Shown piece after piece: positions 4,709-24,015 of a stretch of 24,015 nucleotides of DNA (the stretch's first letter is position 1; every line of letters begins with the position of its first letter). Under the pieces are notes generated by a model. The model was not told the origin of the DNA and did no database searches. It saw nothing but the letters and a program-made list of their open reading frames with translations. The DNA lies in the IMG/VR virus record IMGVR_UViG_2609459938_000002, positions 62,001-86,015 of that record, one strand, 5' to 3'. The DNA is from an uncultured virus (IMG/VR IMGVR_UViG_2609459938_000002). Lineage: Duplodnaviria > Heunggongvirae > Uroviricota > Caudoviricetes. Position numbers and translations under genes: made by a program.

Positions 4709-4732
4709 TTCTCTGCCAACTCATATCTCATT

Positions 4733-4752
4733 AGCCCATCAGGGCTTTTTTT
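4733..4752 (+). terminator. Intrinsic terminator-like hairpin after the capsid gene
   Basis: AGCCC-ATCA-GGGCT followed by a T run to 4752, 24 nt after the stop codon. Confidence 0.6.
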
Positions 4753-4791
4753 ATACCTGAAATCAGCCCTGCGGGGCTGCCAGGAGATGTT

Positions 4792-5118
4792 ATGGCTAAA
4801 AACTTTGTGCAGGAAGGAAAGACGATTCATCTGGTTAATGCCGGACAGGAACCGATTCTGAGTGGGGCAGCTGTTGTTGTCGGTGAGCTGATTGCTATCG
4901 CGATCACTGATATTCCCGGCGGCGATACTGGCGATGGTCTTACTGAAGGGGTATTCCAGCTGCCGAAGCTGCCCGCTGATGAAATTAAAGCGGGAAAGAA
5001 GGTGTATTTCAAGGCGGGCAAGGTACAGCTGGAAGCAACAGGCGCAGTTTTTGCTGGGGTTGCCTGGGAAGATGCGGGCTCAAACAGTACCGTCATTGAC
5101 GTCAAGATCAATGCCTAA
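4792..5118 (+). CDS. DUF2190-like small head protein (capsid decoration/cement candidate)
   Basis: AGGAG at 4782-4786. MAKNFVQEGKTI...GEL.AIA.TDI..G.TG...TEGVFQLPK is the pattern of the family typically found after protease-capsid fusions. Confidence 0.75.
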   Translation: MAKNFVQEGKTIHLVNAGQEPILSGAAVVVGELIAIAITDIPGGDTGDGLTEGVFQLPKLPADEIKAGKKVYFKAGKVQLEATGAVFAGVAWEDAGSNSTVIDVKINA

Positions 5119-5386
5119 CCCTTTCGACAAGATGGCGGCCCGGATGGATGCCGCCACCCTCAAAAAAATGGGTAAGGAAGCGGTCATTAACGGCATAAGC
5201 GTGGACGTCGTGCCTGCTGAGTTGCTGGAGGAGATGGGCGCACTTTCCGGAGCCGCCACGGTGCTGGTCGTGTTTGCTGCTGGTTATCGGCCCGCCAGAA
5301 ACGATGCCGTGGAATATGACGGTAAAGACTGGATCGTTACCCGCTATCAGTTTTTTAACGGGAAGCCTCAAATCTGGCTGGAGTGA
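5111..5386 (+). CDS. Head-tail joining protein (FII-like, Gifsy-2/phage-attachment type), 91 aa
   Basis: ATG 5111 overlaps the end of the upstream gene (MPNPFDKMAARMDAATLKKMG...). It sits immediately before gpZ. The longer ORF-track start at 4892 is rejected. Confidence 0.7.
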   Translation: MPNPFDKMAARMDAATLKKMGKEAVINGISVDVVPAELLEEMGALSGAATVLVVFAAGYRPARNDAVEYDGKDWIVTRYQFFNGKPQIWLE

Positions 5387-5389
5387 ATC

Positions 5390-5968
5390 ATGTCTCTGAA
5401 AGGTCTTGAGCGTGCTATCCAGAATCTGAACAGTCTGAGCCGACTGATGGTACCGACGGCTACCGCGCAGGCGCTTAACCGGGTTGCCGGGCGAACAATT
5501 ACGCAAGGTAGCCGCAAGGTGGCGAAAGAGGCAACGGTTGGTGATAACCGCAAAAAAGGGTTGCCGGTGAGGCTGGTCCGGCAGCGGTCGCGTCTTAAGC
5601 GCGCGAAATCTGATCGTCTGGTGGCGGCCATTCGTATTAACAGAGGGAACCTGCCTGCAATCAAACTGGGTGCTGCACGGGTGCAGCTTTCGAGGCGAAA
5701 AGGCGAAAAACGCGGGCGCGGGAGTGTGCTTCGTATTGGACCGTACATTTTCAAAAATGCATTTATCCAGCAGCTTACGAACGGGCGGTGGCAGGTGATG
5801 CACCGTCTGGGTAAATCCCGCTACCCGATTGATGTTGTGAAAGTTCCTCTCGAAACCCCGTTAACCCAAAACTTCACCGCTATATCAAAGCAGCTTATCG
5901 ACAGTGACATGCCGAAGGAGCTGTCGTCCGCGCTGAAAAATCAACTGAGGATCCACCTGAAGCGATGA
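5390..5968 (+). CDS. gpZ: Minor tail protein Z
   Basis: MSLKGLERAIQNLNSL...AQALNRVA...IRINRGNLPAIKLG...FIQQLTNGRWQVM..RYPIDVVKVP resembles lambda gpZ. Basic protein in the expected position. Confidence 0.92.
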   Translation: MSLKGLERAIQNLNSLSRLMVPTATAQALNRVAGRTITQGSRKVAKEATVGDNRKKGLPVRLVRQRSRLKRAKSDRLVAAIRINRGNLPAIKLGAARVQLSRRKGEKRGRGSVLRIGPYIFKNAFIQQLTNGRWQVMHRLGKSRYPIDVVKVPLETPLTQNFTAISKQLIDSDMPKELSSALKNQLRIHLKR

Positions 5969-6366
5969 GCAAACACACCGCTATTCGTCTTGCTGTTCTG
6001 GACCAGTTAAAGACGTCCATTCCGGACCGTGTGACATGGTTTGACGGACGCCCTGTCTTTCTGGAAGAGCAGGATCTACCGGCGCTCGCAGTCTATCTGA
6101 CGGATGCCGAATACACGGGAGAAAGCCTGGATGAGGATAGCTGGCAAGCAGTCCTTCATATCGAGGTATTTCTGAAATCCACCACGCCGGATAGCGCGCT
6201 GGATGCGTGGATGGAAGAGAAGGTGTATCCGGCTCTTGAAACTATCCCGGCGCTATTTCCCTTAATCGAAACGATGATCCCCATGGGCTACGACTACCAG
6301 CGTGATGACGAAATGGCCACCTGGGGATCGGTCGATCTGACCTATACCCTCACTTATTTTAGATAA
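5965..6366 (+). CDS. gpU: Tail terminator / minor tail protein U
   Basis: [12 protein letters not shown]...FDGRPVFL...[15 protein letters not shown]...LHIEVFL...GYDYQRDDE is gpU-like. ATGA overlap with Z. Confidence 0.93.
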
Positions 6367-6374
6367 GGAATTTT

Positions 6375-7118
6375 ATGGCAACTCCTAATCCAATGGCCCC
6401 GGTAAAAGGGGCTGGTACCACGCTCTGGCTGTATACCGGAACGGGGAACCCCTACGCTAACCCGCTTTCCGATGCTGACTGGCAGCGCCTGGCGAAAATT
6501 AAGGAACTGACGCCGGGCGAAATGACGGCGGAGTCCTACGATGACACCTACCTTGACGATGAAAACGCAGACTGGACTGCGACAGCGCAGGGGGCAAAAT
6601 CGGCAGGTGATACGTCTTTAACCCTGGCCTGGAAGCCAGGGGAAGAGGGGCAAAAGTCGCTGGTGGCCTGGTTTGTCGATGGCGATGTGCGGGCCTACAA
6701 AATTAAATACCCGAATGGCACCGTGGATGTGTTCAAAGGGTGGTGCAGTAGCCTGGGTAAAGCCATTCCCGCGAAGGAAGTGATCACCCGTACAGCCAAA
6801 ATCACCAATACCGGGAAACCTGAACTGGCGGAAGAAAGCGGTAATCCGCCGATCGCGGTGACCGGGATCAAACTCGATAAGGCAACGGCCAGCGTGGCAG
6901 TCGGCACCACCACAACGCTAAATGTTACTTTCCTGCCTGCCAGCGCGTCGATGCAGTCGTTCCGCGCAGCGACCTCGGATAGCTCGAAAGCGAAGGTGGT
7001 CGTGAGTGGCAAATCTCTGATCGTCACCGGCGTGGCACCTGGTGCTGCCGACATTATTGTCATGAGTAATGACGGTAATTTTGTGGCGACCTGCAAAACC
7101 ACCGTGACGGCTTCCTGA
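6375..7118 (+). CDS. gpV: Major tail tube protein V with C-terminal Ig-like (Big_2) domain
   Basis: [10 protein letters not shown]...[25 protein letters not shown]...AWKPGEEGQ is lambda gpV-like. The C-terminal [21 protein letters not shown]...SDSSKAKV...[11 protein letters not shown] (about 6850-7112) is an Ig-like pattern. AAGGA SD lies upstream. Confidence 0.95.
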
Positions 7119-7134
7119 TAACAGAGGAATGAGC

Positions 7135-7557
7135 ATGTTTCTGAAAAAAGACGAATTTACCCATAACGGCGCTACGGTGCCGATCACCGAATTGTCGGCA
7201 TTGCAGCGCATTACTTATCTCGAATATCTGGCCGCAGAAGAAAAAGCCTTATCCGCCATTTCTGATGACGTGGATGACCAGAAAATGTCCGCCGGGCTGG
7301 TCAGTATGAGTATCCGCGCAGGCGCGCGCCTGATTGCGCTCTCGCTCTGGCATAACGATCCTAAAGGGCCCTCTGAAGAGGAGCTCCACCAGCAGGTGAT
7401 GAGTACCTGGCCGCCGGAAGCGATTGGCAAAGCGGAAATGCAGATCAAGCTGCTCTCCGGCATGCTGGCGCCGGTTGCCGAAGAAGAGCAATCTACGGAT
7501 GAAGATATTGATACCACCGTGCTGGGTGATGAACCTGTTACAGCGGAAAAGCCCTAG
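7135..7557 (+). CDS. gpG: Tail assembly chaperone G
   Basis: AGAGGA at 7123-7128 fits ATG 7135 better than ATG 7129. MFLKKDEFTHNGATVPITELSALQRITYL is gpG-like. Confidence 0.9.
   Translation: MFLKKDEFTHNGATVPITELSALQRITYLEYLAAEEKALSAISDDVDDQKMSAGLVSMSIRAGARLIALSLWHNDPKGPSEEELHQQVMSTWPPEAIGKAEMQIKLLSGMLAPVAEEEQSTDEDIDTTVLGDEPVTAEKP
7545..7551 (+). other. Programmed -1 ribosomal frameshift site (G-T)
   Basis: G_GAA_AAG lies just before CCC TAG at the end of G. The -1 frame reads [29 protein letters not shown]..., continuous with the gpT ORF. Confidence 0.8.
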
Positions 7558-7892
7558 CCAGCGAGCTTGATTTTGTCCTGAAGCTGGCGCGTGAGTTCGG
7601 GCGACCTGACTGGCGCGCCATGCTTGCTGGCATGACGTCCTCCGAGCTGGGCGACTGGCATCACTTTTACCGGGAGCGTTTTTTTCAGGACGCGCAGCTC
7701 GATGCCCACTTCTCCGGGCTGCTTTACACCATTTCAACCTTCTTATACCGGGATCCGGACATCACCCCTGCACACTTCAGCCTGCTGTCTCCCTCCGCTG
7801 AGGCTGCAGCGGATAATATACAGGACGATGAAGCCATGATGCTGGCCGCGGAGGGAATTACAGGAGGCACCAGATATGGCCCAGCAGATTAG
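7548..7892 (+). CDS. gpT: Tail assembly protein T (expressed as the gpGT frameshift fusion)
   Basis: Open in the -1 frame relative to G from the slippery site. The [23 protein letters not shown] motif matches lambda gpT. The ORF-track ATG at 7620 is internal. Confidence 0.9.
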
Positions 7893-10800
7893 CGACCTTG
7901 TCATTAACCTGGATGTCGACAGCGCCACATTCACCGAACAGATTGCCAGGATTAAGGGGCAACTGTCCGGTGTGGCGAATGAGTCGGAAAAAGTGCAGAC
8001 GCGCATGCGCAGTGTGGCAGAGGCGCAAATCACCGCGCTTAAAACGACCTGCGATGCCGGTGCCGGCGCCGTGTCCGATATGCAGAGGCGGCAGGCGGAT
8101 GCCGCCGCCGGGCTTCAGAACGAATTGCAGCGGGTCTCCAAATCGGTCGATGAGACTTACCAGCGCGTCACCGGGTTAAACCAGCGTTATCGGGAGAACG
8201 ACGCTCAGGCAGAGGCGCTGGCGCGGCGGCAGGATGCGCTGGCGGAATCGTTCTTTCGGCAGATAGATGGCGTTCGATCCCTCAGTGGTGAAACACGGTC
8301 GCTGGCCAGTGTACAGGAACAATTCCGCAAGGCCCGCGCGCAGGGGAACATCACTCAGGGTGATTATCTCTCCCTGATTTCCCGCACTACGGCACGGCAG
8401 AAAGAACTCCAGCAGGTTGAGGAAAAAGCGAACCAGGCGCGCGAAAAATTTCTTCGCCAGCTTAAGGCCCAGGTGGTCGAACAAAAACTATCTGGTACTG
8501 AGCTGTTGAGAATGAAAGCCGCGCAGGTAGGCGCCAGCGATGCTGCTGAAGTTTATATCCGCAAACTGGAAGCGGCAAAGGTCGCAACGCACAGCCTTGG
8601 TTTCGAGAGCGCCGGTGCACGTCGGGAGCTTGGTGTTCTGGCTGGAGAGTTATTGCGGGGCAACTTCGGCGCTCTGCGTGGCTCCGGGATAACCCTGGCG
8701 AATCAGGCCGGGTGGCTCGAAAAAATGATGACGCTACGCGGACTGGGGATCGCTGGCGTGGTCGGTGGCATAGCAGCATCCGTCGTTCTGCTGGGAAAGG
8801 CGTGGTATGAGGGCGGGAAGGAAGCCGAGGAGTTTAACAAACAGCTCATTCTCACCGGGAACTATGCCGGTAAAACCTCGGGACAACTGCAGGCACTGGC
8901 ACGGAACATCTCAGGAAATGGAGTCACTCAGCACGCCGCGGCAGCCGTATTAGCGCAGGTTGTGGGAAGCGGGGTATTCGGCGGCGCCGACGTCGAACGG
9001 ATTGCCAATGTGGCTGCGAGGCTTCAACAGGCTACCGGCCAGGCTGTGGATGAAACCATTAACCAGTTTAAGCGGCTAAAAGAAGATCCGGTTAATGCGG
9101 TCGCAACGCTGAATGAATCTCTGCATTTTCTGACCGCAAGTCAGTTTGAGCAGATTTCAGCTGCTCAGGCGATGGGCGATTCTCAACGCGCTGCCGAGCT
9201 CGCGATGCGCGCATATTCAGATGCTGTTATCCAGCGCGCAAATGCAGTAAAGGACAACCTGGGAACGCTGGAAACGGCGTGGAACTGGGTTAAAAATGCC
9301 GCCAGCGGCGCCTGGGATGCCATGATGGGCATTGGTCGTAATCCTGATGCGGCCATGAAGCGGCAGGGGGCTTTTGCAGAATGGCAGGCCGCGGAAAAAG
9401 AACGCCGTCAACTGGCCGCCAATCTAAACGTCGATCCCAACTATTCCGGTAATAACCCCCTCATTAAGGCTGATGTAGAACGTTTGCGTATTGCCACTCA
9501 ACGTGCTGAGTTGCTGAAACAAACTTATGATGAGGCCGATAAAGCATACGCTAAGGAAGGTTTAGCCGCGGCACGCGAGAAGCTGCGTAACGAACAACAA
9601 CAGCAAGCCATCAGGAACCAGCAGCAGTTTAATCAACTTCTGGAAGCAGGCCTCAAGCCAGCAGAAAGACGGGCTCGCGCCCAGGCCGAATTTAATAAGC
9701 TCGTTGAGAAAAACAAGCAAGATGCGATCGATGGGATTGCCACCCGCTGGACAGCCAGCGATATAGAAAAAATCCGCGCAAGTATTGATGCCAGGTACAA
9801 AGACCCTAAAACCCCGAAAGGGAGGCAGTACACAACACCCGCCGGGAGTAAAGCAGAGGAAGGGGCCCAGGCCGAATTACTGACCCTGCAGGCTCAGTTG
9901 AAAACCCTCCAGCAGCATACAGACGTCAACGACGTGATCAGTAAGCAACGTCGGGATCTCTGGCAGGCAGAAAATCAGTATGCTGTTTTGCAGGAAGCGG
10001 CCGGCCGCCGCCAGCTCTCCGCCCAGGAAAAATCACTGCTGGCCCACAAAAACGAAACCCTGGAATACAAACGTCAGCTGGCAGATCTCGGTGATAAGGT
10101 CGCCCGGCAGCAGAAGCTGAATAATCTGGCAGATCAGGCCAATAAATTCGCTCAGCAGCAGAGTTCGATCCGGGCGGGGATCAAGGCTCAGGCCGACGGA
10201 CTTTCCGGCAGGGAAGCGAACAGAAGAAGCACGCTTGAAAAGCTGAGTGAAACGTACGCCTTCAATCCTGGTGCGCAGCGCAAGGTGCTGGAGGAACAGC
10301 AAGCCACCTATGAAGCCGAGGACGCATTGCGCGGTAACTGGCTGGCCGGCGCCAAACAGGGCTGGGCAGAGTATCAGGATTCCGCCACTAATGTATTTTC
10401 CTCTGTTCAACAAATATCCCAGGCTACCTTCGGGGGGCTGGCAAATCAGCTGACATTGCTGAATACCACCGGCAAAGCGAGTTTTAAGGAATTCACCACA
10501 TCCATTCTGAAGATGATCGCTCAGGTCATCGATCAGCTTATTGTGGCCTACACCTTTCAGGCTGCAATGGGGTGGATCAGCGGCGGGAGCAGTTCTTCAA
10601 ATTATGGTCAGTCTTTTGCCGTTCCTTCCTATCGTCCCTCTGGCTTTGATGGTGGTGGTTATACCGGGCATGGTGGTAAGTACGAGCCCGCGGGGGTTGT
10701 CCACCGCGGCGAATTCGTTTTCACCAAAGAGGCAACCAGCCGCATCGGCGTGAGCAACCTGTACCGGATGATGCGTGGTTATGCTTCAGGCGGGTATGTT

Positions 10801-13519: not shown

Positions 13520-16500
13520 ATGGCAAATAACATCATTAAAGGGCGCAAGGGTGGCGGCTCAAAGCAGCGTACACCGACGGAACAGCCGGATGATTTACAG
13601 TCCGTTGCGAAAGCCAAAATTCTGCTCGCATTAGGTGAGGGTGAATTTGCAGGTGGTTTAACCGGTAAAGATATTTATCTTGATGGCACCCCGCTTGAAA
13701 ATGCTGATGGTTCGCAAAACTTCAGTGGCGTGTCCTGGGAATTTCGCCCCGGCACGCAGGCTCAGACTTATATTCAGGGTATTCCCGGTACTGAAAATGA
13801 AATCAGTGTGGGATTGGAAGTTTCCAGCAAGACAGCCTGGACCCATACCTTTACTAATACCCAGCTTTCTGCCGTTCGTTTTCGTCTGAAATGGCCGTCC
13901 CTGATGAAACAGGAAGATGACGGCGACGTGGTGGGCAATACCGTCAGGTATGCGATTGACCTGCAGACCGACGGCGGCGCCTGGCAGACGGTGCTGGAAA
14001 CCGCTGTCTCGGGTAAAACCACCACCGGTTATGAGCGGAGCCATCGTATTGATCTGCCCCAGGCCTGCAGTACTTGGACGCTACGTCTGCGTAAAATCTC
14101 TCCGGATGCAAACAGTGTCAAAACTGGCGACGTGATGACGCTGCAGAGCTATACCGAAGTGATTGACGCGAAGCTGCGTTATCCCAACACCGCACTGCTT
14201 TATATCGAGTTCGACTCCAGCCAGTTTAATGGCTCCATTCCGCAAATTTCCTGTGAGCCGCGTGGGCGCGTAATCCGGGTGCCGGATAACTACAATCCGG
14301 AAACCCGCGAATATACCGGCGTCTGGACCGGCGGGTTTAAATGGGCCTGGACGGATAACCCGGCCTGGATCTATTACGACATTGTTATCGCTGACCGTTT
14401 TGGTCTCGGTAATCGTCTGAGCAGCGCCAATATTTCGAAATGGACGTTGTACCAGATTGCACAGTACTGCGATCAGCTGGTTCCTGACGGGCGCGGTGGT
14501 GACGGCATGGAGCCGCGCTATACCTGTAACGTCTATGTCCAGGAACGCAACGATGCTTACACCGTGCTGCGAGATTTTGCCGCCATCTTCCGGGGCATGA
14601 CCTGCTGGAACGGTGAGCAGATTGTTGTGCTGGCTGATATGCCGCGTGATGTCGATTTTACTTATACGCGCGCCAATATTGTCGGCAAACCCCGTTATTC
14701 GAGCAGCAGCAGCCAGGTTCGGTACACCAACGCCCTGGTTTCCTGGTCTGATCCGGATAATGCTTATGCTGATGCGATGGAGCCTGCGTTTATCCCTGAA
14801 CTGGTTTCCCGCTACAGTTTTAACCAGCTCGAAATGACCGCGATTGGCTGTACGCGCCAGAGCGAAGCCCACCGTAAGGGACTGTGGGGTATACTGACCA
14901 ACAATAAGGACCGCATGGTCGAAATTGATGTGGGGCTGGACGGTCGCATTCCTCAACCCGGTTATATCATTGCCCTGGCGGATGAGTTGCTGGCCGGACG
15001 GGTCAACGGCGGGCGAATCAGCGCGGTGAATGGCCGGGTGATTACGCTGGATCGTGATGTGGATGCCAAACCTGGCGACCGCCTCCAGCTAAACCTGCCA
15101 TCAGGGATCTCACAGAGCCGGACCATTCAGGCTGTTAATGGACGCCGACAGATTACGGTCACAACGGCGTACAGTGAGACGCCGGAACGGGAATGCGTCT
15201 GGGCCATTGAATCCGATGACCTCTTCCTGCAGCAGTACCGGGTTACAGGGGTAAAAGAGAACAACGATGCCACCCTCACGATCACCGGCGTGGCACATGA
15301 CCCGGATAAATTCGCCCGCATCGATACCGGCGCTATTATCGACCAACGCCCGGTTAGCGTATTGCCGGCGGGCAACCAGTCACCTCCTGACGATATTGTC
15401 ATCACATCCCGCTCGGTCGTGAATCAGGGGATCAGCGTCGAAACGATGCAGGTTAACTGGTCAGCGGTCAGCGGTGCTATTGCCTACGAGGCGCAGTGGC
15501 GCCGTAACGACGGGAACTGGATTAATGTGCCGCGCAGCTCGACCACCTCGTTTGAGGTCAGCGGCATCTATGCCGGTCGTTACCTGGTTCGCGTCCGCGC
15601 GATCAATGCGGCGGAGATTTCGAGCGGGTGGGCGTATTCCGAAGAGAAAACCCTGACCGGCAAGGTCGGCGAGCCGCTGGCACCGCTGGCGCTGGCAACC
15701 CGTTCGCTGGTTCATGGGGTCCAGGTTAGCTGGGAGTTCCCGAGCGGCTCCGGGGATACGCTGCGCACGGAACTGCAGTACAGCAAAAATCAGGACGGCA
15801 GTGCGCCGATGCCGTTATCAGACGTGGCCTATCCGGGGAAAAGCTATCAGCAGATGGGCCTCAGTATGGGCGCAGAATTCTGGTATCGGGCGCGCCTTGT
15901 TGATCGTCTGGGCAATGAAAGCCCGTGGACCGGCTGGGTCCAGGGGATGGCCAGCGATAACTTTGATGACTACTACGAAAACCTGACTGACGCGATCAAG
16001 GATACGGCTGCCTGGGAGGAAACGCAGCGTACCATTAGCGAAACGCAGGAAGGTATCCGCAATACGCAGCAGGAACTGGAGCAGACCGCTGAAGAGCTGC
16101 GTCAGGAAGCCGCAGATCAGGCGAAGCAGGTCAGCCAGAATATTGATGCATCGGCGAAAAGCATCACTGCTGATGTGAATCAGCAGATAGCAGTTTTGAG
16201 CAAGTCGCTTGCCGACGGCGATGCCGCATTGAATGCGCAGATTAAAACTGCCGAGAATGGCCTGAAGCAGTCGTTGTCTCAGGTCAACACCACGTTAACC
16301 AATGCGGTTAAGCAGGAAACTGCGGATCGTATCGCAGATATTAACGCGAAGGCGGCACAGGCTGCTGATGAACTGCTGGCGGCAACGCAGGGGATTGAGG
16401 CGAGTATCGAGAGCCTGACTCAGGTAATGAAGAGTGCCGATGAAAATCTGGCGCGGGAAATGTCCAGCCTCGCTGCCGGCGCCAATATCCAGTTCGATTC

Positions 16501-19500
16501 GCAGGTTATCTGGCATTTCAACAGTCAGACGACCGAGGGCTGGACCGGCAGCGCCGGCGTACCGGGTGTGTCCCGGGATGGCTGGTTACGCCCTGCGGAC
16601 AGCGCCACCGATCCGTACATTACCTCTCCCGGCGGTCTGGCTGTCGATGGTGCAGCGTACCGCTTCATCATGCTGCGCTTTCGTAAAACCGGCAAACCAG
16701 TCTGGGCGGGTGAGATCCGTTGGGTGTCTGCCGGCGAAAACTTTAATAACACGAAGCGATACATTGTTGCTGAGCCGGAATATGCCGATGGGGTGGCAAC
16801 CCTGACGGTGCGTGATATTCCGTGGACAGGGAACATTGATCGTATTCGCCTGGACCTGACGAACCAGCAGGATGCCAGCAACTTTATCGAATTCGACTGG
16901 ATCGCCGTTGGCCGGCCAGCACCCGGCGCCAGTACGGCGGCTCTGCAGGATGTGCGCAGTACGCTGAGTAACGCGCTGACCTCCGAAGCACAGGCACGCA
17001 GCACGCTGGCGGCGCAGATGCGTGGCTCCTATGATGGCAGCGATCTGGAGAAAGTCACCTCCGGGCTGCTATACCAGGAAAAAACGGCGCGCGTTACCGC
17101 CATCCAGGCGGAAGTTAAGGCCAGAGAGTCCCTTCAGATGCAGTTTAACGACAACAAAGCTGCTGTTTCTGGTGAACTGAGTTCTCTGACGACAGAGCAG
17201 CGCGCGCAGGCGAGCCGTATCGGTGGTCTGGAAACCAGCCTCGGGAAAAAAGCCGATGCGACCGCGCTGACGTCCCTGACGCAGAAAGTTGAGCAACAGG
17301 GCGCCACGCTGACATCGCAGGGCGCCGCGTTAACATCACTCACTAACCGGGTGGGCCAGACGGAAACGGGCCTGGCTGGTACGAATGAGGCGCTGAGCGG
17401 GCTGCAGTCTGTTGTTACCCGTCAGGGCGACAGGATAACCAGCCAGGGTCAGTCCATCACAAAACTGACGAGCGATTTGGGCACGACAAATTCCGCGCTG
17501 GTGAAGAAAGCCGAAGCGGCTGCGGTCACTGCCTTAACGCAGCAGGTGGAGCAAAACGGGCGGGATATTCGCAGCAATACTGACAGTATCACCCGCCTGT
17601 CGAATCAGCTGGTCAATGGCCAGCCGAATAGCTGGTCCCGTCGGATCTATCCTGTGCAGCTGGCTAACGCCGTGACAGTCCCGTCATTCAGCGATATTCG
17701 CGCCGTGGCGCCAGTGGTCGTGGATGAGGTGGCCGACGCGACCAGACTGGACTTTACGTCCGCTGGGAGCTATCTGATCGCGCTGTATTCCTGCCAGGTG
17801 AAAGTGGCGGCCGATACCACCATCACAATGACGCCCGGTAACAGGGTTTTTGATGATACCGGTGCTGTATTTGTAAATGGCGTTCAGGTTGCCTGGGGAA
17901 ACGCCAGCTGGACTACCGTCAGTTTTGATCTGAAAGCCGGCTGGAACACAGTTGAGTTTCTGGTGAATCAGTGGGCTGGCCAGGCGTATATCAACCTGGG
18001 ACTGAAGCTGTCAGACAAGGTTGCTGAGATGTACTCCGGTCTCGGTGTTTCCGCGCTGGCAAACGCAGCCGGCGTACTCAACTCGAATGTCAGCCAGATT
18101 GGCAACGATGTGGTCAGCAATTCGCAGAGCATCACCCAGCTCCGGAATGCGCTGACGCAGACAGACGCGAATGTGGCCAGCAAAGCGGATCAGACGGCGA
18201 TGAACTCCCTAACCGGACGAGTGGAGAAGACGGAGTCCGGTCTGACGGCGGCGAACAGCAACATTACGTCGCTCAGCAGCTCTCTGAGCCAGCAATCCAA
18301 ACGCGGCGCTAATCTGCTTCCTGATGGCACTTTTGAAAGTTACGCGGTTGGTCACAATCTGGCGAATAACCGTGCCATCGTGACCACTGACGACTCGCAT
18401 GGCGGCAATAAATGCATTCGTGTGACGCGTCCGAATGACTACAATGCCAATGCAACTGACAACACTGACACCCACATTTTCAGCGGATTCCAGGTTCGCG
18501 ATAACGCAGTCTTCTATATGGAATGCTGGGTTAAGCTGGATTCCAGGAGTACCGCTATGGCCGGGAACGTGCAGATTTCCGTCGGCTTATCGCTCCAGTA
18601 TCAGGACAACTCCTGGCAGTGGCCGGCAGTTACCAAAGCGGCAAAGGATCTCTCTTCAACTCAATGGACGAAGGTTTCTGGTTACCTGAAATCAACGAAG
18701 AGCGGTATTAAGCAGGCAATGGTCAGGATTTCTATTCCTAACGTTAGCAGCGTTAAGGCGGGTAACTCATTCCTCATTGATGACCTGGTCATTACCGAAG
18801 TGACTGATGCCTACAATGCGCAAAGTACAGCAGATGCTAACGCTAATGCGATTTCGACACTGAACTCGACCGTATCCCAACAGGGCGGCCAGATCACCAG
18901 TCAGGGTAACAGCATCACTAAACTGATAAATGACCTGGCGAAGACTAATAATAACGTCAGCAATAAAGCAGACGCTAATGCTCTGACGGCACTGACCAAC
19001 CGTGTTACCCAGACCGAAAAAGACATTAACTCAACGAGTTCTTCTGTCACGAATCTGAACAACAAGGTTGATGCAATTTCTGTCGGCGGTACAAACCTGA
19101 TCAAGAACTCCGGCGATATGACCGGCTGGTCGAACGTTGTCAGCGATACGTATCGTGGTAACGCGGTAATTAGCACAACTGTAAAAGCCGGCTCCGGTTA
19201 CAGGGATTTGCGGGAAATCACGCTTGAGTCGCCGCTCGATGCAGGGGAGTACGTTTACAGCTTCTATGCGAAAGGCGGCGTTGCTGGCCAGACGATGACG
19301 GCGTTCTTCTACAATCCGAACACCACAACGTCTATCGAGACCAGCCAGGGTGCGAAAGGTAACAACACTGATGGTCGTGCGCAGTTCACGCTGACCACTT
19401 CATGGGCCCGCTATTGGGTTAAGTGGAAACAGACACCTACCACGGGCACCAAGCGCCTGATTCTGTGCCGTATCGAGAGCAATACCTCCAAAGACCAGAC

Positions 19501-22456
19501 GGTGTACATCAACAGTCCGAAGTTTGAGGTAGGTAACGTTGTTTCCGACTGGAACGAGTCTCCGTCTGATAGCGCCAGTGCGTCGGCTGTGGATTCGCTG
19601 ACAACGAAAGTGAATCAGCAAGGCACTTCCATTAGCTCTATCGGAAATCGCACCACATCGTTGGAAAACAGGTTATCGACAGCTCAGAACAACATTGCCA
19701 GGAAGGCTGATGCTTCTGCATTGCAGGATCTCCGGAACACGGTGACATCTCAGGGGGGCGATTTAACCGCGGCGAACAGTAGCATTACCAGCCTGCAGGC
19801 CTCGATGAACCGTCGCACTGTGTTTACTGTCACTGCACGGGGGAATGGCAACAGCGTAACTCCTGGGGTTTTTGATGAAAGCGGCAAAAACCTGTTTACC
19901 CCTGGTCGCAGCTGGGCACTGGTCACTTTTGCAAAACACAGCAACGGATCAACGGTGATTGCGACATCCAAAACATACGATGTCTTTGGCAGCGCGAATA
20001 ATGGTGCCACGATGTCGGCTGATATCGAGGCGTTGGCCAGTGGCACTTACGTTTGCGTCCTGACATTCGATGAGCCATCTGGCAACCGAGGTAAGATATT
20101 GTCTGCTCTGGAATCTCTTGGTGGTACATCCGAAGTCGTCAACTCCCTGCCGTATCGTGGTGCCTATATTCTCCTTGGCCGCAAAGGCATGAGGCCGGGC
20201 GATGGTCTGGAACTGCGTGCGCCAACCGGTGGTGACGCCACTGCCCACATTTCGACCTCAGTCGAGTTTGTGAACGGGGTAATGATGGGACTGGGCGCCG
20301 CCGGCGGTGTGATGATGAAGGCTGATGCGAACGCGTCGGCAATTACCACGCTCCAGAACACAGTGAAGGCCCAGGGGGGTAATATTGACTCCCTGAGTTC
20401 CTCGGTAACGGCGCTGGAGAACAGCCTCAGGTCGACAAACGATACGGTGAGTAAAAAGGCCGACACGTCCGCGGTGAGTTCACTGACCGGTCGCGTAAGC
20501 CAGGTGGAAAACACCATCACCAGCCAGTCGCAGAGCATCACGTCGCTGACCAGCACCATCAATACCATCCGCACTCAGGGAGCTAATCCGTGGGTTGACG
20601 GTACGTTCGAAAGCTACGGAGATGGTCATGTGCTGGGCGGGGGCGGCACCGCCGTTGTGGTGGAGTCGCAGAAATTCACCGGCAATAAGAGCCTGCAGGT
20701 GAGCCGGGGAGCGAACAATAACGGCAACAGCGATAAACAGCTTGGGAGCTGGCAGTCAGTCCGTGAGGATGCGAAGTTCCGGTTTGAGTTCTGGGCCATG
20801 ATGCCGGCGGATCAGAAACCCTCCTCCGGGTGGACAACGCTGGTCGGTATCAACTCACTGAATGCTGCCGGTCAAAACTCCTGGCAGTCGGCGGTCACTG
20901 TCAGCGAAGCCGCTCTTGGTGCGCGTGATAAGTGGGTGAAATTTACGGGTATTGCCAGTAACAACGGGGGTGGTAGAACACGCGCGGTGGTCTGGATCTC
21001 CACCCGTGGCGCCTCCGGCAGCGGCACCCCCGGTTATTCGCTGTATATCGACGATCTGGTTATCACGGATGTTACCGATGCGAAAGCGGCACAGGATGCC
21101 TCTGACGCGACGGCGAGTGCCGTAAGCGGTCTGACGGCTCGCGTAACGGATGCCGAAGGGAAAATCACCGCCCAGGCGCAGCAGCAGGCGGCACTGGCCA
21201 CGAAAGTGGATAATGCCAACTCCCGCGTCGATAACATGGCGAAGACGCTGAGCGACAGCCAGAACACACAGGCCAGTCTGAATACCTCGCTTCAGTCGCA
21301 GATTGACGCGCAGGCGGCCGCCAACATCAAAAACCAGACGACGCTGGACAACACGATTAAATCGGTGGCCAGTATCACCAGTACCCAGCAGACGCATGCA
21401 ACGGCACTGGAGGCCCTGGCAACGCAGCAGACGACCCTGACATCCAGTGTCGGGGATCTCAGTGCTTCCGTTCAGAATACCGCCAAAACCGTGGCGGCTG
21501 TGAATGGTACGGTGAGTTCTCTGTGGTCGATGAAGGTTGAGACGGTTAACGGGAAGAAGGTTGGCGCGGGGATTACGCTGGGCAGCAATGGTGAAACGAG
21601 CGACATTATCCTTTATGCCGACCGCTTCTCGCTGTTTAACCGTAATAATGCGACGGCTGTTCCGGTGATGGTTGCCGAAGGCAATGAACTGTATATCGAT
21701 ACGGCACGTATCAAAAACAGTTCCCTGACCTCAACCAAAATCGCGGACGGTTCCATCACGAACGCGAAGATCGGCAACGAGATCCGCTCGAATGACTTTG
21801 TTGACGGGTCACGCGGCTGGCGTATCGCTAAGGATGGCTCTTCGCAGTTCAACAACGTGATCGTTCGCGGTGCGGTTTATGCGACTGACGGCTGGTTCCA
21901 GGGTACGGTATATGCGAACCACATCGAGGGCGACATCGGGTCATTTGCGATCAACATCGCTCAGCACCGCACGCGCAAGGTGCCGAAGGCTACATGGCAG
22001 TGGTTTGAGCTGGCCCGGTTCCGGCGGCAGAATTTCGACCAGGTGATCAATATTCGCGGTGGACTCCTCCAGACGGATAGCATCACTATCGACGGCGGCG
22101 CGAAACTCAGAGCGGGGATGTCCTACGCGCCAGGGGCTGACGGCGGACTGAATCCTGGCTATCTGTCGTATGCAATGCTTCTTCGTGGCACAGGCGCTAC
22201 GTCTGGTGGCGGCAGTATGGAGCTAGGCATTGAGCTTATGTATGAAACAGGTGGAGCAACACGCCTGTTAACGGCGCAAGAGTCAATGAACGTAGACAAC
22301 ATGTCATTTGTCGTCCCTGCCGGTACTGGCGACGCTGTTCTGCGATATGGCTGTTACCTGGACCGTAACGGACAGATGGTATTAACCATCCTCTCAAGAT
22401 TCGACGCCTTCGCCGCGCGCAATAACAACGTAATTAGAGCTGCATCATCTGCTTAA
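13520..22456 (+). CDS. gpJ: Giant host-specificity / central tail fibre protein J (2978 aa) with six inserted globular modules
   Basis: The N-terminal ~830 aa are lambda-J-like (GRKGGG, LGEGE, WAWTDNPAW, EPRYTCN, GCTRQSEAHRKG, FN3-like YEAQWRR...YLVRVRAIN). A long S/T/Q/N/A-rich coiled coil is interrupted by modules at about 16481-16930, 17615-18045, 18305-18811, 19082-19570, 19811-20296 and 20579-21082. A DUF1983-like region (ADRF...LYIDTARI..ITNAKIG..IRS...GWRI.KDG) spans 21518-21937. Confidence 0.95.
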   Translation: MANNIIKGRKGGGSKQRTPTEQPDDLQSVAKAKILLALGEGEFAGGLTGKDIYLDGTPLENADGSQNFSGVSWEFRPGTQAQTYIQGIPGTENEISVGLEVSSKTAWTHTFTNTQLSAVRFRLKWPSLMKQEDDGDVVGNTVRYAIDLQTDGGAWQTVLETAVSGKTTTGYERSHRIDLPQACSTWTLRLRKISPDANSVKTGDVMTLQSYTEVIDAKLRYPNTALLYIEFDSSQFNGSIPQISCEPRGRVIRVPDNYNPETREYTGVWTGGFKWAWTDNPAWIYYDIVIADRFGLGNRLSSANISKWTLYQIAQYCDQLVPDGRGGDGMEPRYTCNVYVQERNDAYTVLRDFAAIFRGMTCWNGEQIVVLADMPRDVDFTYTRANIVGKPRYSSSSSQVRYTNALVSWSDPDNAYADAMEPAFIPELVSRYSFNQLEMTAIGCTRQSEAHRKGLWGILTNNKDRMVEIDVGLDGRIPQPGYIIALADELLAGRVNGGRISAVNGRVITLDRDVDAKPGDRLQLNLPSGISQSRTIQAVNGRRQITVTTAYSETPERECVWAIESDDLFLQQYRVTGVKENNDATLTITGVAHDPDKFARIDTGAIIDQRPVSVLPAGNQSPPDDIVITSRSVVNQGISVETMQVNWSAVSGAIAYEAQWRRNDGNWINVPRSSTTSFEVSGIYAGRYLVRVRAINAAEISSGWAYSEEKTLTGKVGEPLAPLALATRSLVHGVQVSWEFPSGSGDTLRTELQYSKNQDGSAPMPLSDVAYPGKSYQQMGLSMGAEFWYRARLVDRLGNESPWTGWVQGMASDNFDDYYENLTDAIKDTAAWEETQRTISETQEGIRNTQQELEQTAEELRQEAADQAKQVSQNIDASAKSITADVNQQIAVLSKSLADGDAALNAQIKTAENGLKQSLSQVNTTLTNAVKQETADRIADINAKAAQAADELLAATQGIEASIESLTQVMKSADENLAREMSSLAAGANIQFDSQVIWHFNSQTTEGWTGSAGVPGVSRDGWLRPADSATDPYITSPGGLAVDGAAYRFIMLRFRKTGKPVWAGEIRWVSAGENFNNTKRYIVAEPEYADGVATLTVRDIPWTGNIDRIRLDLTNQQDASNFIEFDWIAVGRPAPGASTAALQDVRSTLSNALTSEAQARSTLAAQMRGSYDGSDLEKVTSGLLYQEKTARVTAIQAEVKARESLQMQFNDNKAAVSGELSSLTTEQRAQASRIGGLETSLGKKADATALTSLTQKVEQQGATLTSQGAALTSLTNRVGQTETGLAGTNEALSGLQSVVTRQGDRITSQGQSITKLTSDLGTTNSALVKKAEAAAVTALTQQVEQNGRDIRSNTDSITRLSNQLVNGQPNSWSRRIYPVQLANAVTVPSFSDIRAVAPVVVDEVADATRLDFTSAGSYLIALYSCQVKVAADTTITMTPGNRVFDDTGAVFVNGVQVAWGNASWTTVSFDLKAGWNTVEFLVNQWAGQAYINLGLKLSDKVAEMYSGLGVSALANAAGVLNSNVSQIGNDVVSNSQSITQLRNALTQTDANVASKADQTAMNSLTGRVEKTESGLTAANSNITSLSSSLSQQSKRGANLLPDGTFESYAVGHNLANNRAIVTTDDSHGGNKCIRVTRPNDYNANATDNTDTHIFSGFQVRDNAVFYMECWVKLDSRSTAMAGNVQISVGLSLQYQDNSWQWPAVTKAAKDLSSTQWTKVSGYLKSTKSGIKQAMVRISIPNVSSVKAGNSFLIDDLVITEVTDAYNAQSTADANANAISTLNSTVSQQGGQITSQGNSITKLINDLAKTNNNVSNKADANALTALTNRVTQTEKDINSTSSSVTNLNNKVDAISVGGTNLIKNSGDMTGWSNVVSDTYRGNAVISTTVKAGSGYRDLREITLESPLDAGEYVYSFYAKGGVAGQTMTAFFYNPNTTTSIETSQGAKGNNTDGRAQFTLTTSWARYWVKWKQTPTTGTKRLILCRIESNTSKDQTVYINSPKFEVGNVVSDWNESPSDSASASAVDSLTTKVNQQGTSISSIGNRTTSLENRLSTAQNNIARKADASALQDLRNTVTSQGGDLTAANSSITSLQASMNRRTVFTVTARGNGNSVTPGVFDESGKNLFTPGRSWALVTFAKHSNGSTVIATSKTYDVFGSANNGATMSADIEALASGTYVCVLTFDEPSGNRGKILSALESLGGTSEVVNSLPYRGAYILLGRKGMRPGDGLELRAPTGGDATAHISTSVEFVNGVMMGLGAAGGVMMKADANASAITTLQNTVKAQGGNIDSLSSSVTALENSLRSTNDTVSKKADTSAVSSLTGRVSQVENTITSQSQSITSLTSTINTIRTQGANPWVDGTFESYGDGHVLGGGGTAVVVESQKFTGNKSLQVSRGANNNGNSDKQLGSWQSVREDAKFRFEFWAMMPADQKPSSGWTTLVGINSLNAAGQNSWQSAVTVSEAALGARDKWVKFTGIASNNGGGRTRAVVWISTRGASGSGTPGYSLYIDDLVITDVTDAKAAQDASDATASAVSGLTARVTDAEGKITAQAQQQAALATKVDNANSRVDNMAKTLSDSQNTQASLNTSLQSQIDAQAAANIKNQTTLDNTIKSVASITSTQQTHATALEALATQQTTLTSSVGDLSASVQNTAKTVAAVNGTVSSLWSMKVETVNGKKVGAGITLGSNGETSDIILYADRFSLFNRNNATAVPVMVAEGNELYIDTARIKNSSLTSTKIADGSITNAKIGNEIRSNDFVDGSRGWRIAKDGSSQFNNVIVRGAVYATDGWFQGTVYANHIEGDIGSFAINIAQHRTRKVPKATWQWFELARFRRQNFDQVINIRGGLLQTDSITIDGGAKLRAGMSYAPGADGGLNPGYLSYAMLLRGTGATSGGGSMELGIELMYETGGATRLLTAQESMNVDNMSFVVPAGTGDAVLRYGCYLDRNGQMVLTILSRFDAFAARNNNVIRAASSA
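17249..20578 (+). repeat. Degenerate intragenic stalk repeats in J (KAD/KAE...LT..V...IT.L units)
   Basis: KAD/KAE-initiated units start at 17249, 17507, 18182, 18965, 19703, 20318 and 20456. DNA-level remnants: TCGCAGAGCATCAC at 18122 and 20528, and a 27/34 match between 17435-17468 and 18893-18926. Confidence 0.8.
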
Positions 22457-22518: not shown

Positions 22519-24015
22519 ATGGCGATGTATGAAGTCGGCACCGTCACGGGTGCAGCGTCGCAAGCACGGGTGACAGGTGCGACAACAAAATGGTCACAGG
22601 TGGCGCTGGGGATACTGCCCGGGTCGATTCTGGTGGTCTACCGCAGCGGTAGTGCTGACCTGTATGCGATCAAATCTGTGGACAGCGACACGCAACTGAC
22701 GCTGACCCGGAATATCACCACCGCATTTTCCGGTGCCTCTTACGGCATTATTACAGCTGAAACCGCCAGCACCTCGTCGTTTGCTAACCAGCTGGCCAGC
22801 GCGTTTGCATTCTGGCGTAGTGTAGTGGAGGGCTGGTCGATGGCCCTGACCGGCAGCGGCAATATTACCCTGACTGACCCGATCACAGGAAAGCAGGTGA
22901 CCGTGCCGGCGATAGCCGGGATGGCGAAAGCATCGGATCTTAACGCGCTGGCAAAACTCACCGGAGGAAACAACCTCGCCGGCTCGCAAATTATAACTAG
23001 CGATAATTCCGGTTTTATTTTGGGCAGGAACTCAGATCTGGCTCTGCTTAAAAAACAAGGGCAAGGCGGGACAATTGCCGTCGGCTCGGGAACACCGTTC
23101 AGGGTTCAGCGTTCAAGAGCGACCACTGTATCACCGTCAGAAACCTATGATGACATCCTCGTTATTGGCACCAATAACCAGACGACGTTGCCCGGAGATT
23201 TGGTTGTCGGTGGTGGTTTCGATAATACGGCAAAGGGCAAGCTGTATTCCCAGGCGTTAGAGCTGTCGATGGGCACTCCGTACATCGATTTTCACCATAA
23301 CAAAAGTGCTAACGACTACACCGCACGCCTCATCACCACCTCTGCAGACCAGCTGAGTGTGCAGGGAAGCCATCTACGGGTAGACAGAGACCTGCGGGTG
23401 GGGCAAGCGGCCGACATCGGCAGCTGGATACAGTGTCGCTATGACTGTGTGTCGCAGCGGAGCGACTTCGGTTCTCCTGCCATTGGCTCGTTAGTTTCCG
23501 GGGGCAGAGTTCGGTCCCGCATATCAGGGCGCGGAGGAAACGGGGACACATCAGGAGCGTGGGGGGGATTCTACCTTGAGGAGTACGTAGGCACTGAGCA
23601 CCGGATCGTTCTGTACATGGATGGGTTCGGCAGGACGGACGCGTGGACCTTCCGCTCTGGCGGTGCCGTCTCCACCCCGAAGGGGGATGTCATGACCACC
23701 GGCTCAGACGTGCGGCTGAAAGAGGATTTTACGGAATCCCAGGAAGGGGCCTCCAGGCGTATTAACGCGCTGGGGATATGTGAGTTCAACATGAAAGGCG
23801 AAACACGCCGTAGGCGTGGATTTATTGCTCAACAAGCTGAAAAAGTTGACCCGATTTACACCTTTCAAAGCGGCGATGTAGAAATTGATGGCGAGAAGAT
23901 CAATATCCTTAACGTAGACCATACGGCCATCATCGCGGATCTTGTTCTTACGGTGCAGGAGTTAACAAAACAAGTGCGTGATTTGAACAAGCAGGTTCAA
24001 ACAAAAGAGTACTGA
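22519..24015 (+). CDS. Side tail fibre with C-terminal intramolecular chaperone (peptidase S74-like), 498 aa
   Basis: AGGAGGA SD at 22504-22510. Fibre-anchor N-terminus (YEVGTVT...VTGATTKW...IKSVDSDTQLTL), a PYIDFH...DYTARLI fibre motif, GSDVRLK (Ser at 23704, Lys at +5), then RRGFIAQQ and a terminal coiled coil. Confidence 0.88.
   Translation: MAMYEVGTVTGAASQARVTGATTKWSQVALGILPGSILVVYRSGSADLYAIKSVDSDTQLTLTRNITTAFSGASYGIITAETASTSSFANQLASAFAFWRSVVEGWSMALTGSGNITLTDPITGKQVTVPAIAGMAKASDLNALAKLTGGNNLAGSQIITSDNSGFILGRNSDLALLKKQGQGGTIAVGSGTPFRVQRSRATTVSPSETYDDILVIGTNNQTTLPGDLVVGGGFDNTAKGKLYSQALELSMGTPYIDFHHNKSANDYTARLITTSADQLSVQGSHLRVDRDLRVGQAADIGSWIQCRYDCVSQRSDFGSPAIGSLVSGGRVRSRISGRGGNGDTSGAWGGFYLEEYVGTEHRIVLYMDGFGRTDAWTFRSGGAVSTPKGDVMTTGSDVRLKEDFTESQEGASRRINALGICEFNMKGETRRRRGFIAQQAEKVDPIYTFQSGDVEIDGEKINILNVDHTAIIADLVLTVQELTKQVRDLNKQVQTKEY

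Follow-up and report, generated by a model that had tools for sequence, protein, structure and literature searches.

The central tail fibre protein of phage lambda, gpJ, is composed, in order, of hub domains, two fibronectin type III (FNIII or FN3) domains, an alpha-helical shaft at residues 809–861, a beta-prism fibre and a receptor-binding domain (PMC11101478), and the shaft of the F-type pyocin fibres is a trimeric coiled coil (PMC12874032). Carbohydrate-binding modules (CBMs) have been described from AlphaFold2 models in extensions of the Tal protein, one CBM of a Streptococcus phage Tal being superimposable on the sugar-binding stem domain of POMGnT1 (PMC9437275). Residues 482–629 of the R4C megatron protein were termed a 'carbohydrate-binding domain' (CBD) by its authors (PMC10276861), and J-type fibres with elongated coiled coils were reported in E. 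coli phages by RBPseg (PMC12143355). In this study, a stretch of 24,015 nucleotides from an uncultured virus (IMG/VR record IMGVR_UViG_2609459938_000002, positions 62,001 to 86,015), called the window below, was analysed with respect to its gene J, which encodes a giant gpJ whose helical shaft is interrupted by six globular modules of predicted sugar-binding kinds.

Architecture of the giant J protein

Gene J is a single intact open reading frame (ORF) on the + strand at 13520–22456 of the window, stop codon included, and its translation is 2978 amino acids (aa) long. Segmentation by aromatic density delimited six globular segments at aa 986–1137, 1365–1502, 1596–1763, 1866–2014, 2106–2224 and 2351–2518. 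In detail, the six modules (M1–M6, 134–166 residues) each contain 12–18 Phe, Trp or Tyr and 4–9 Pro, and stalks S2 to S6 contain 1, 1, 0, 0 and 0 aromatic residues out of 95, 95, 86, 97 and 150 residues, respectively, with at most one Pro each. Four aromatic residues were counted in S0, all within its first 21 positions, and three in S1. The starts of successive modules from M2 to M6 lie 230, 259, 243 and 256 codons apart. ORF, segmentation and composition thus agree with the original prediction, made from the sequence before this analysis, of a 2978-aa J in which coiled coil alternates with six aromatic-rich globular inserts. The module starts proposed there, converted to aa 988, 1366, 1596, 1855, 2098 and 2354, fall within a few residues of the segmentation, the larger offsets at M4 and M5 resulting from aromatic-poor module edges. 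The stalk length of about 80–95 aa proposed at the same time holds for S2–S5 (86–97 aa), but not for S1 between M1 and M2, which is 233 aa long and had gone unmentioned.

The array lies between the FN3 region, which ends at aa 811, and the Pfam family Phage_Tail_Tip (PF09327, aa 2651–2791, 107.3 bits), that is, the extra length is found where it had been expected, between an FN3-like region and a DUF1983-like tip. FNIII-A_GpJ (PF24801, aa 91–217, 156.7 bits) and Phage-tail_3 (PF13550, aa 342–503, 44 bits) were also detected above their cut-offs, ILEI scored 37.6 bits at aa 2146–2223 of the whole protein, and the PHROG labels for J are 'tail protein' and 'central tail fiber J'. HK97 J, whose shaft is one unbroken aromatic- and proline-free run of 168 aa, aligns twice with the giant protein, at 67% identity over query aa 5–989 and at 28% over query aa 2510–2809 (HK97 J aa 820–1189). 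Since HK97 J aligns to both flanks, the array is placed inside the helical shaft, of which S0 is the proximal and S6 the distal part. By this comparison, about 1,530 residues are added within the alpha-helical shaft, which connects the FN3 collar with the beta-prism tip. The resulting layout is given in Table 1.

A twin of J is present in phage Kp4865-4 (GenBank) with 99.8% identity over 100% coverage, and five IMG/VR contigs (L002, L003, L004, L007 and L016) match J aa 1–2806 at 98.7–99.4% identity, indicating that the architecture is not an assembly artefact. Judged from its sequence, J belongs to the TipJ family by every feature testable here.

Table 1. Segments of the J protein and their positions in the window
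Segment	Residues (aa)	Window position	Strand	Remarks
Hub core and FN3 region	1–811	13520..15952	+	PF24801, PF13550; collinear with HK97 J aa 6–987 (67%, together with S0)
Stalk S0, proximal helical shaft, 179 aa	812–990	15953..16489	+	0 Pro; within the HK97 alignment ending at aa 989
Module M1, type C	991–1135	16490..16924	+	homologue of the R4C megatron 'carbohydrate-binding domain'
Stalk S1, 233 aa	1136–1368	16925..17623	+	three 42-aa units at aa 1244, 1291, 1330
Module M2, type B, PA14-fold lectin-like domain	1369–1502	17624..18025	+	
Stalk S2, 95 aa	1503–1597	18026..18310	+	two units, aa 1513, 1555
Module M3, type A, CBM22/16/4-related jelly roll	1598–1763	18311..18808	+	
Stalk S3, 95 aa	1764–1858	18809..19093	+	two units, aa 1773, 1816
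Module M4, type D, CBM4/16-type jelly roll	1859–2014	19094..19561	+	
Stalk S4, 86 aa	2015–2100	19562..19819	+	two units, aa 2019, 2062
Module M5, type E, ILEI/FAM3-type domain	2101–2257	19820..20290	+	Pfam PF15711
Stalk S5, 97 aa	2258–2354	20291..20581	+	two units, aa 2270, 2313
Module M6, type A, M3 paralogue	2355–2518	20582..21073	+	
Stalk S6, distal helical shaft, 150 aa	2519–2668	21074..21523	+	one unit, aa 2530
Tail-tip beta-prism and C-terminal receptor-binding part	2669–2978	21524..22453	+	PF09327; lambda gpJ 8iyk residues 858–998 match

Identity of the six modules

When searched against the PDB with phmmer, M1 matched residues 494–622 of the R4C megatron (8gtc_M) with an E-value of 1e-8. 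Its look-alikes in a language-model atlas were of mixed CBM and galactose-binding-like families (0.90–0.93), and these were taken as a lead only.

For M2, Pfam assigns no family to the single sequence. Scans of viral contigs with the M2 and M4 alignments gave mostly near-identical copies, and 50%-identity representatives were used for the fold alignments. The AlphaFold2 model of M2 from an 11-sequence alignment reached a pLDDT of 92.7 and a pTM of 0.88, its top match by Foldseek was the PA14 adhesin Cea1A (E 7.9e-5), and the PA14 beta-barrel fold spans the whole domain. PA14 lectins hold Ca2+ for sugar binding through an Asp-Asp pair ('DcisD'). An Asp-Asp pair of M2, D84-D85, is invariant in all 11 sequences and pairs, in a weak sequence alignment (E 0.013), with the DD of 'DDxxxYVNG' in the lectins 6t0q and 6kbj. 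Matches of M2 in BFVD include PA14-named proteins of uncultured phages, so this is not the first case of the PA14 fold in a phage.

M3 and M6 are paralogous (38.5% identity, E 2e-20). A 23-sequence profile of the two matched the solved CBMs 4xup (CBM22, E 4.4e-11), 2zew (CBM16, 8.9e-11) and 1gui (CBM4, 2.2e-7), and this profile-level homology, together with a shared fold, assigns them to the CBM4/9/16/22 jelly-roll type. In 6 of 13 giant relatives the Pfam family CBM_4_9 (PF02018) scored above its cut-off, at 57.6–117.3 bits. M4 is a distant relative of M3 and M6 with a CBM4/16 jelly-roll fold.

M5 alone was assigned to the Pfam family ILEI (PF15711) with 42.8 bits against a cut-off of 27, and ILEI-bearing clusters made up 25 of its 30 matches in the atlas. 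The stem domain of POMGnT1, to which a Tal module has been likened as described above, presumably has the FAM3 fold too. A kinship of type C with type A, or of type B with type E, was considered and rejected on profile comparison (probabilities of 0.2% and 0.6%, no relation).

As classified from their sequences, the six modules represent five types in four superfamilies, all of predicted sugar-binding kinds, with affinities of unequal strength. The modules had been announced as six different ones of about five types; five types stands, while the paralogy of M3 and M6 removes the former count. Profile, Pfam, PDB and fold searches also bear out the lectin-like character proposed for the inserts, which are discrete beta-rich domains with lectin or CBM affinities on helical spacers.

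Stalk units and the helical shaft

Stalks S2–S5 and two pieces of S1 align with one another, and a model of the shared unit detected 12 copies of 42–43 residues, spaced 42–43 residues apart within a stalk, with two units between neighbouring modules from M2 onward. Across the 12 units, conserved hydrophobic residues at positions 7, 10, 14, 21, 28, 31 and 35 form the a/d pattern of a heptad. Of 105 family representatives that are 1500 aa or longer, 91 have the unit, the median being 10 copies, and 7 of the 13 giant relatives showed sub-threshold or marginal matches to the helical SlyX family. A 3.5-residue periodicity was evident in S6 (power 2.65, matched by 0 of 2000 shuffles), but for S0–S5 taken as whole stalks heptad periodicity was not significant, so that the heptad pattern is visible only within the units and in S6.

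The distal part of J was also compared with solved structures. By phmmer against the PDB, aa 2500–2978 matched the 'J-like tail tip protein gp24' (23gd_D, E 1.5e-21) and lambda gpJ (8iyk_J, E 1.1e-3), and S6 with the tip matched the F-type pyocin fibres 25vf (F2-pyocin, E 2.7e-12) and 9l9p (E 1.4e-7). The heptad pattern, together with the homology between S6 and the trimeric helical shafts of lambda and the F-type pyocins, leads us to infer that the stalks may form a parallel trimeric coiled coil. A simple amplification of the HK97 shaft was dropped as the source of the stalk units, because the unit model gave only weak matches there (i-E 0.075–0.56).

A coiled coil rises by 0.148 nm per residue. 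If continuous, stalks of 86–97 residues would therefore hold neighbouring nodes 12.7–14.4 nm apart, in line with the spacing of roughly 13 nm in the original prediction, and the 935 stalk residues in all would amount to about 138 nm of coiled coil. Compared with J, a 43-aa insertion was observed in P0002 and L014 at aa ~886, in stalk S0 (window 16175–16180 region); this insertion is as long as one stalk unit, indicating that shafts differ in length by steps of a single unit as well.

Given the homology between S6 and the shaft of the F2-pyocin fibre, the 42-residue units might alternatively be fold-switching elements as in that shaft, with the lectin domains as grips, for which we see a small chance. 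The fibre of about 140 nm would then be shortened roughly threefold and the virion reeled through the Klebsiella capsule, making a contractile device within a 'non-contractile' tail, and this too has little probability in our estimate. It is favoured by the one unit of S6 that recurs 11 more times upstream, by a 163-residue switch reported for the pyocin and predicted in 21 of 24 phage fibres (PMC12874032), and by the partial conversion of the lambda shaft to beta-sheet upon LamB binding (PMC11101478). However, a loose form of the published switch pattern SxSxxMxxLxS was enriched only in S1 (9 observed vs. 2.5 expected, 1 of 2000 shuffles) and not in S0 or S2–S6, S6 itself having 3 against 2.35 expected, and the weakness of the unit model in the HK97 shaft also counts against such a switch.

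Relatives and module orders

In an exhaustive search (E up to 1e-3), the family comprised 1458 clusters at 50% identity, the longest protein having 4797 aa, and at least 2794 close proteins were retrieved by a word-indexed search, most of them from Klebsiella, named 'TipJ family' or 'DUF1983' and 3738–4071 aa long. Phages phiKO2, 48ST307 and KpLi5 are among several Klebsiella phages that match the first 70% of J. Of 13 giant representatives scanned whole, nine carry the J N-terminus and three ILEI. The sole match in species-representative genomes was a giant J of 4349 aa (L001, match 3394–9570, best segment 61% identical), in a record titled Limoniibacter endophyticus, which is non-enterobacterial; either a real prophage or contamination is possible.

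Module number and order were tabulated across J homologues, as had been proposed with the prediction, and six-, nine- and ten-module forms were distinguished. In a list of the query with its 120 best relatives, which favours long proteins, 87 have the order C-B-F-G-B-A-D-E-A (nine modules) and 15 the order C-B-A-F-G-B-A-D-E-A (ten modules), and the six-module order C-B-A-D-E-A is that of the query only. The six-module form also occurs in the five IMG/VR contigs mentioned above, which have another C-terminal end, and in one contig with the 43-aa insertion. A set of 47 diverse representatives, each with three or more assigned modules, showed 34 module orders; 35 of these proteins begin with type C and 31 end with type A. 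Runs of a single module type were seen in some giant relatives (P0208, P0180 and P0161), for example seven of type D in P0208, indicating that serial duplication, in addition to shuffling, can enlarge arrays.

The alignment of the query with the ten-module P0002 contains a single in-register gap of 1018 aa, by which the query is without B-A-F-G. The register switches at aa ~1325–1395, from the last ~45 residues of S1 into M2, and the stalk end plus B module at this site are duplicated almost exactly in P0002. A junction within such a duplicate is the pattern expected from homologous recombination between the copies, and the J copy in the window accordingly matches, at the sequence level, an in-register deletion of 1018 residues from the ten-module form. 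Module number and order may thus change through in-register recombination between repeated stalk units and duplicated modules. A recent tandem duplication within J was rejected, the DNA direct repeats being short (three families of 30–47 nt) and 70–80% identical. The stalks within J are not similar at the DNA level.

Conserved modules and exchangeable tip

Across 168 relatives, a sample biased towards close relatives, the median identity was 94.8–98.8% for the modules and 78.4–98.9% for the stalks, by which the idea that modules are more variable than stalks was refuted. The C-terminal aa 2801–2978 were matched in 90 of the 168, and the tip was replaced in the other 78. The five IMG/VR contigs likewise have a different, shorter C-terminal end after J aa 2806 (window 21935–22453). 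By these alignments, the exchangeable element is the receptor-binding tip, that is, the last ~170 aa, swapped independently of the array.

This conservation is relevant to the alternative that the array is a spacer or ruler, lengthening the fibre to cross the capsule, with its beta domains acting not as lectins but as nodes for trimerisation or stiffening. The ~138 nm offered by the 935 stalk residues are comparable with the tail set by the 1047-aa tape measure protein, good conservation of the modules contrasts with swapping of the tip, and the positions of the outermost modules, type C at the start and type A at the end, are conserved, all of which would suit a spacer. Nevertheless, we consider it unlikely that length and stiffness are all that the array provides, since a structural need alone hardly explains why all six domains, from four superfamilies, are of sugar-binding kinds, and the shuffling of module order among the 47 representatives also speaks against it.

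Proposed function of the array

A multivalent sugar-gripping central fibre is, in our judgement, the moderately probable function of the array. As lambda J is trimeric, the units would form a segmented three-stranded coiled coil presenting a ring of three lectin-type domains every ~13 nm, with 18 domains in all along a fibre at least about 140 nm long. These domains would bind surface polysaccharide weakly, reversibly and multivalently, the ligand being capsule, O antigen or some other common sugar. This grip would hold the virion on the cell while the exchangeable tip reaches an outer-membrane receptor through the thick sugar layer of Klebsiella, and the trigger for DNA release would travel up the shaft, as in lambda.

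Several observations weigh against this function. With regard to the modules, a CBM or lectin fold by itself does not prove sugar binding, and the family assignments of the modules are uneven. Neither PA14 (1 of 11 M2 family members, E 0.018) nor GLEYA (2 of 11, E 0.017) was significant in Pfam for M2, both being below threshold. As single sequences, M3 and M6 reached 24.3 and 17.8 bits with CBM_4_9, both under the cut-off of 25.9, and M4 gave no match to that family; M5 matched FAM3C and FAM3A in the PDB only weakly (E 0.096–0.27). Further, the conserved modules beside a swapped tip, in a sample dominated by close relatives, argue against capsule-type-specific recognition by the modules, and the capsule could instead be dealt with by the product of a separate gene just 3′ of J, a fibre or spike that has a Peptidase_S74 chaperone.

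With regard to the rod, the E-values of the unit scan are circular, as the model was built from those very units; the hydrophobic positions, the occurrence in family representatives and the SlyX matches are independent of it. The units have two polar d positions and conserved or frequent Gly (a 'QQG' motif), at which the rod may break or fold otherwise, and in S2–S5 as whole stalks the 3.5-residue periodicity was no better than in shuffled sequences (701–1614 of 2000 reached the signal). This null result fits a phase slip between units 43 residues apart, yet it leaves room for interruptions.

Another conceivable target of the modules is not the bacterial surface but glycans found in the environment or on the animal host, as in models of mucus adherence. 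This alternative is favoured by the lectin-type folds and by the mucosal habitat of Klebsiella. Mucus-binding Ig-like domains, by contrast, usually sit on the capsid or tail tube. The modules here lie on the infection organelle itself, between hub and receptor-binding tip, the tube protein of this phage already has a Big_2 domain, and related CBMs in phage Tal, BppA and the megatron were assigned to host-cell binding (PMC9437275, PMC10276861), so that such a target seems very improbable.

Gene neighbourhood

The window corresponds to the structural arm of a temperate, lambda-like siphophage of Klebsiella. Its genes run from a terminase nuclease domain through a lambda-family portal, a ClpP-capsid fusion, a cement protein, Z and U to the Big_2-bearing tail tube protein, G, T, the tape measure, M, L, K, I, J and the Peptidase_S74 fibre gene. 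The M, L, K and I homologues directly 5′ of J were identified by Phage_min_tail, Phage_tail_L, JAB+NlpC/P60 and Lambda_tail_I, respectively.

Further products, all encoded on the + strand, were observed in this arm. A protease-(scaffold)-capsid fusion of 687 aa is encoded by a single ORF at 2645–4708, with a ClpP-type protease at aa 31–203 and a major capsid domain at aa 377–684. The lambda-type tail tube protein (6375–7118) ends in a Big_2 Ig-like domain (aa 161–241), the usual site of tube decoration or adhesion domains. The G-like (7129–7557) and T-like (7620–7892) ORFs of the tail assembly chaperone are arranged as expected for the conserved −1 frameshift G-T product. Downstream of J, the gene at 22519–24015, which continues past the window end, encodes a product of at least 498 aa with a Peptidase_S74 intramolecular chaperone at aa 396–445, a separate second fibre or tailspike; this product could be a capsule-directed receptor-binding protein.

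Discussion

The host range of Klebsiella phages is usually explained by capsule depolymerases. These enzymes seem unexpectedly rare in Klebsiella prophages (PMC13123978). Central fibres with 6–10 or more lectin-type domains, which are very common in Klebsiella prophages, could be a second, non-enzymatic answer to the sugar coat. Their cassette-like build, with conserved first and last modules, a shuffled middle, an exchangeable tip and recombination at stalk units, also makes them a natural scaffold for studying or engineering adsorption. A mechanical question arises as well, for the receptor signal of lambda crosses a shaft of ~50 residues to reach the FN3 collar, and here it would have to cross ~1,850 residues. 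The architecture of the J array is real and widespread but hardly described, and a role in gripping sugars is what its domains suggest.

Membership in the TipJ family, together with the CBM-strung Tal extensions and the single CBD of the R4C megatron, as already described in PMC9437275 and PMC10276861, places the array among known kinds. The claim of an undescribed system, with which the original prediction had closed, was accordingly overstated, as the family is abundant in databases and multi-CBM Tal fibres are known (PMC9437275); what stands of it is that, in the literature searched, no description was found of a J-type coiled-coil/CBM array with a 42-residue unit.

Lambda gpJ and HK97 gp24 (8iyk, 8xci and 8xcj) share with this J the gene position and the hub, FN3 and tail-tip domains. 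The difference is in the shaft, which in lambda J occupies residues 809–861 of 1132 (PMC11101478), and in the J of the window is broken by six lectin-type domains and 12 extra 42-aa units; neither the 1132 residues of 8iyk_J nor the domain order given for lambda J includes such an array, as had been anticipated. The giant TipJ proteins of Klebsiella (phiKO2 gp21, 48ST307, KpLi5 and entries of 3738–4071 aa) are of the same family and have the same module types, the J studied here being a short six-module form of them, and their database entries carry generic names only. The F-type pyocin fibres (25vf, 9l9p) have a part homologous to S6 plus the tip, and their shaft is a trimeric coiled coil before firing (PMC12874032). 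With ~1200 aa, however, these fibres have no room for such an array, and the fold switch shown for the pyocin would be speculation for J. The megatron protein of roseophage R4C / RcGTA (8gtc; PMC10276861) is a tail-tip baseplate protein whose CBD at 482–629 is homologous to M1, but there the CBD was inserted just once, into a compact baseplate protein without a coiled-coil array.

The closest likeness is to the Tal of Streptococcus thermophilus siphophages (PMC9437275) and the related BppA of Tuc2009 (5e7t), namely a trimeric central tail-tip protein with CBMs, a long helix and a beta-prism. The Tal CBMs number one to three, including POMGnT1-stem-like and CBM4/16/BppA-like ones (PMC9437275), compared with 6–10 or more modules in the J family. 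Tal also differs in its Tal/gp27-like hub, its collagen-like and '3-beta' linkers and its Gram-positive hosts (PMC9437275), in place of which the J described here has a J hub and 42-aa units. Thus, the nearest described analogue of the J array is the CBM-bearing Tal extension of Streptococcus phages.

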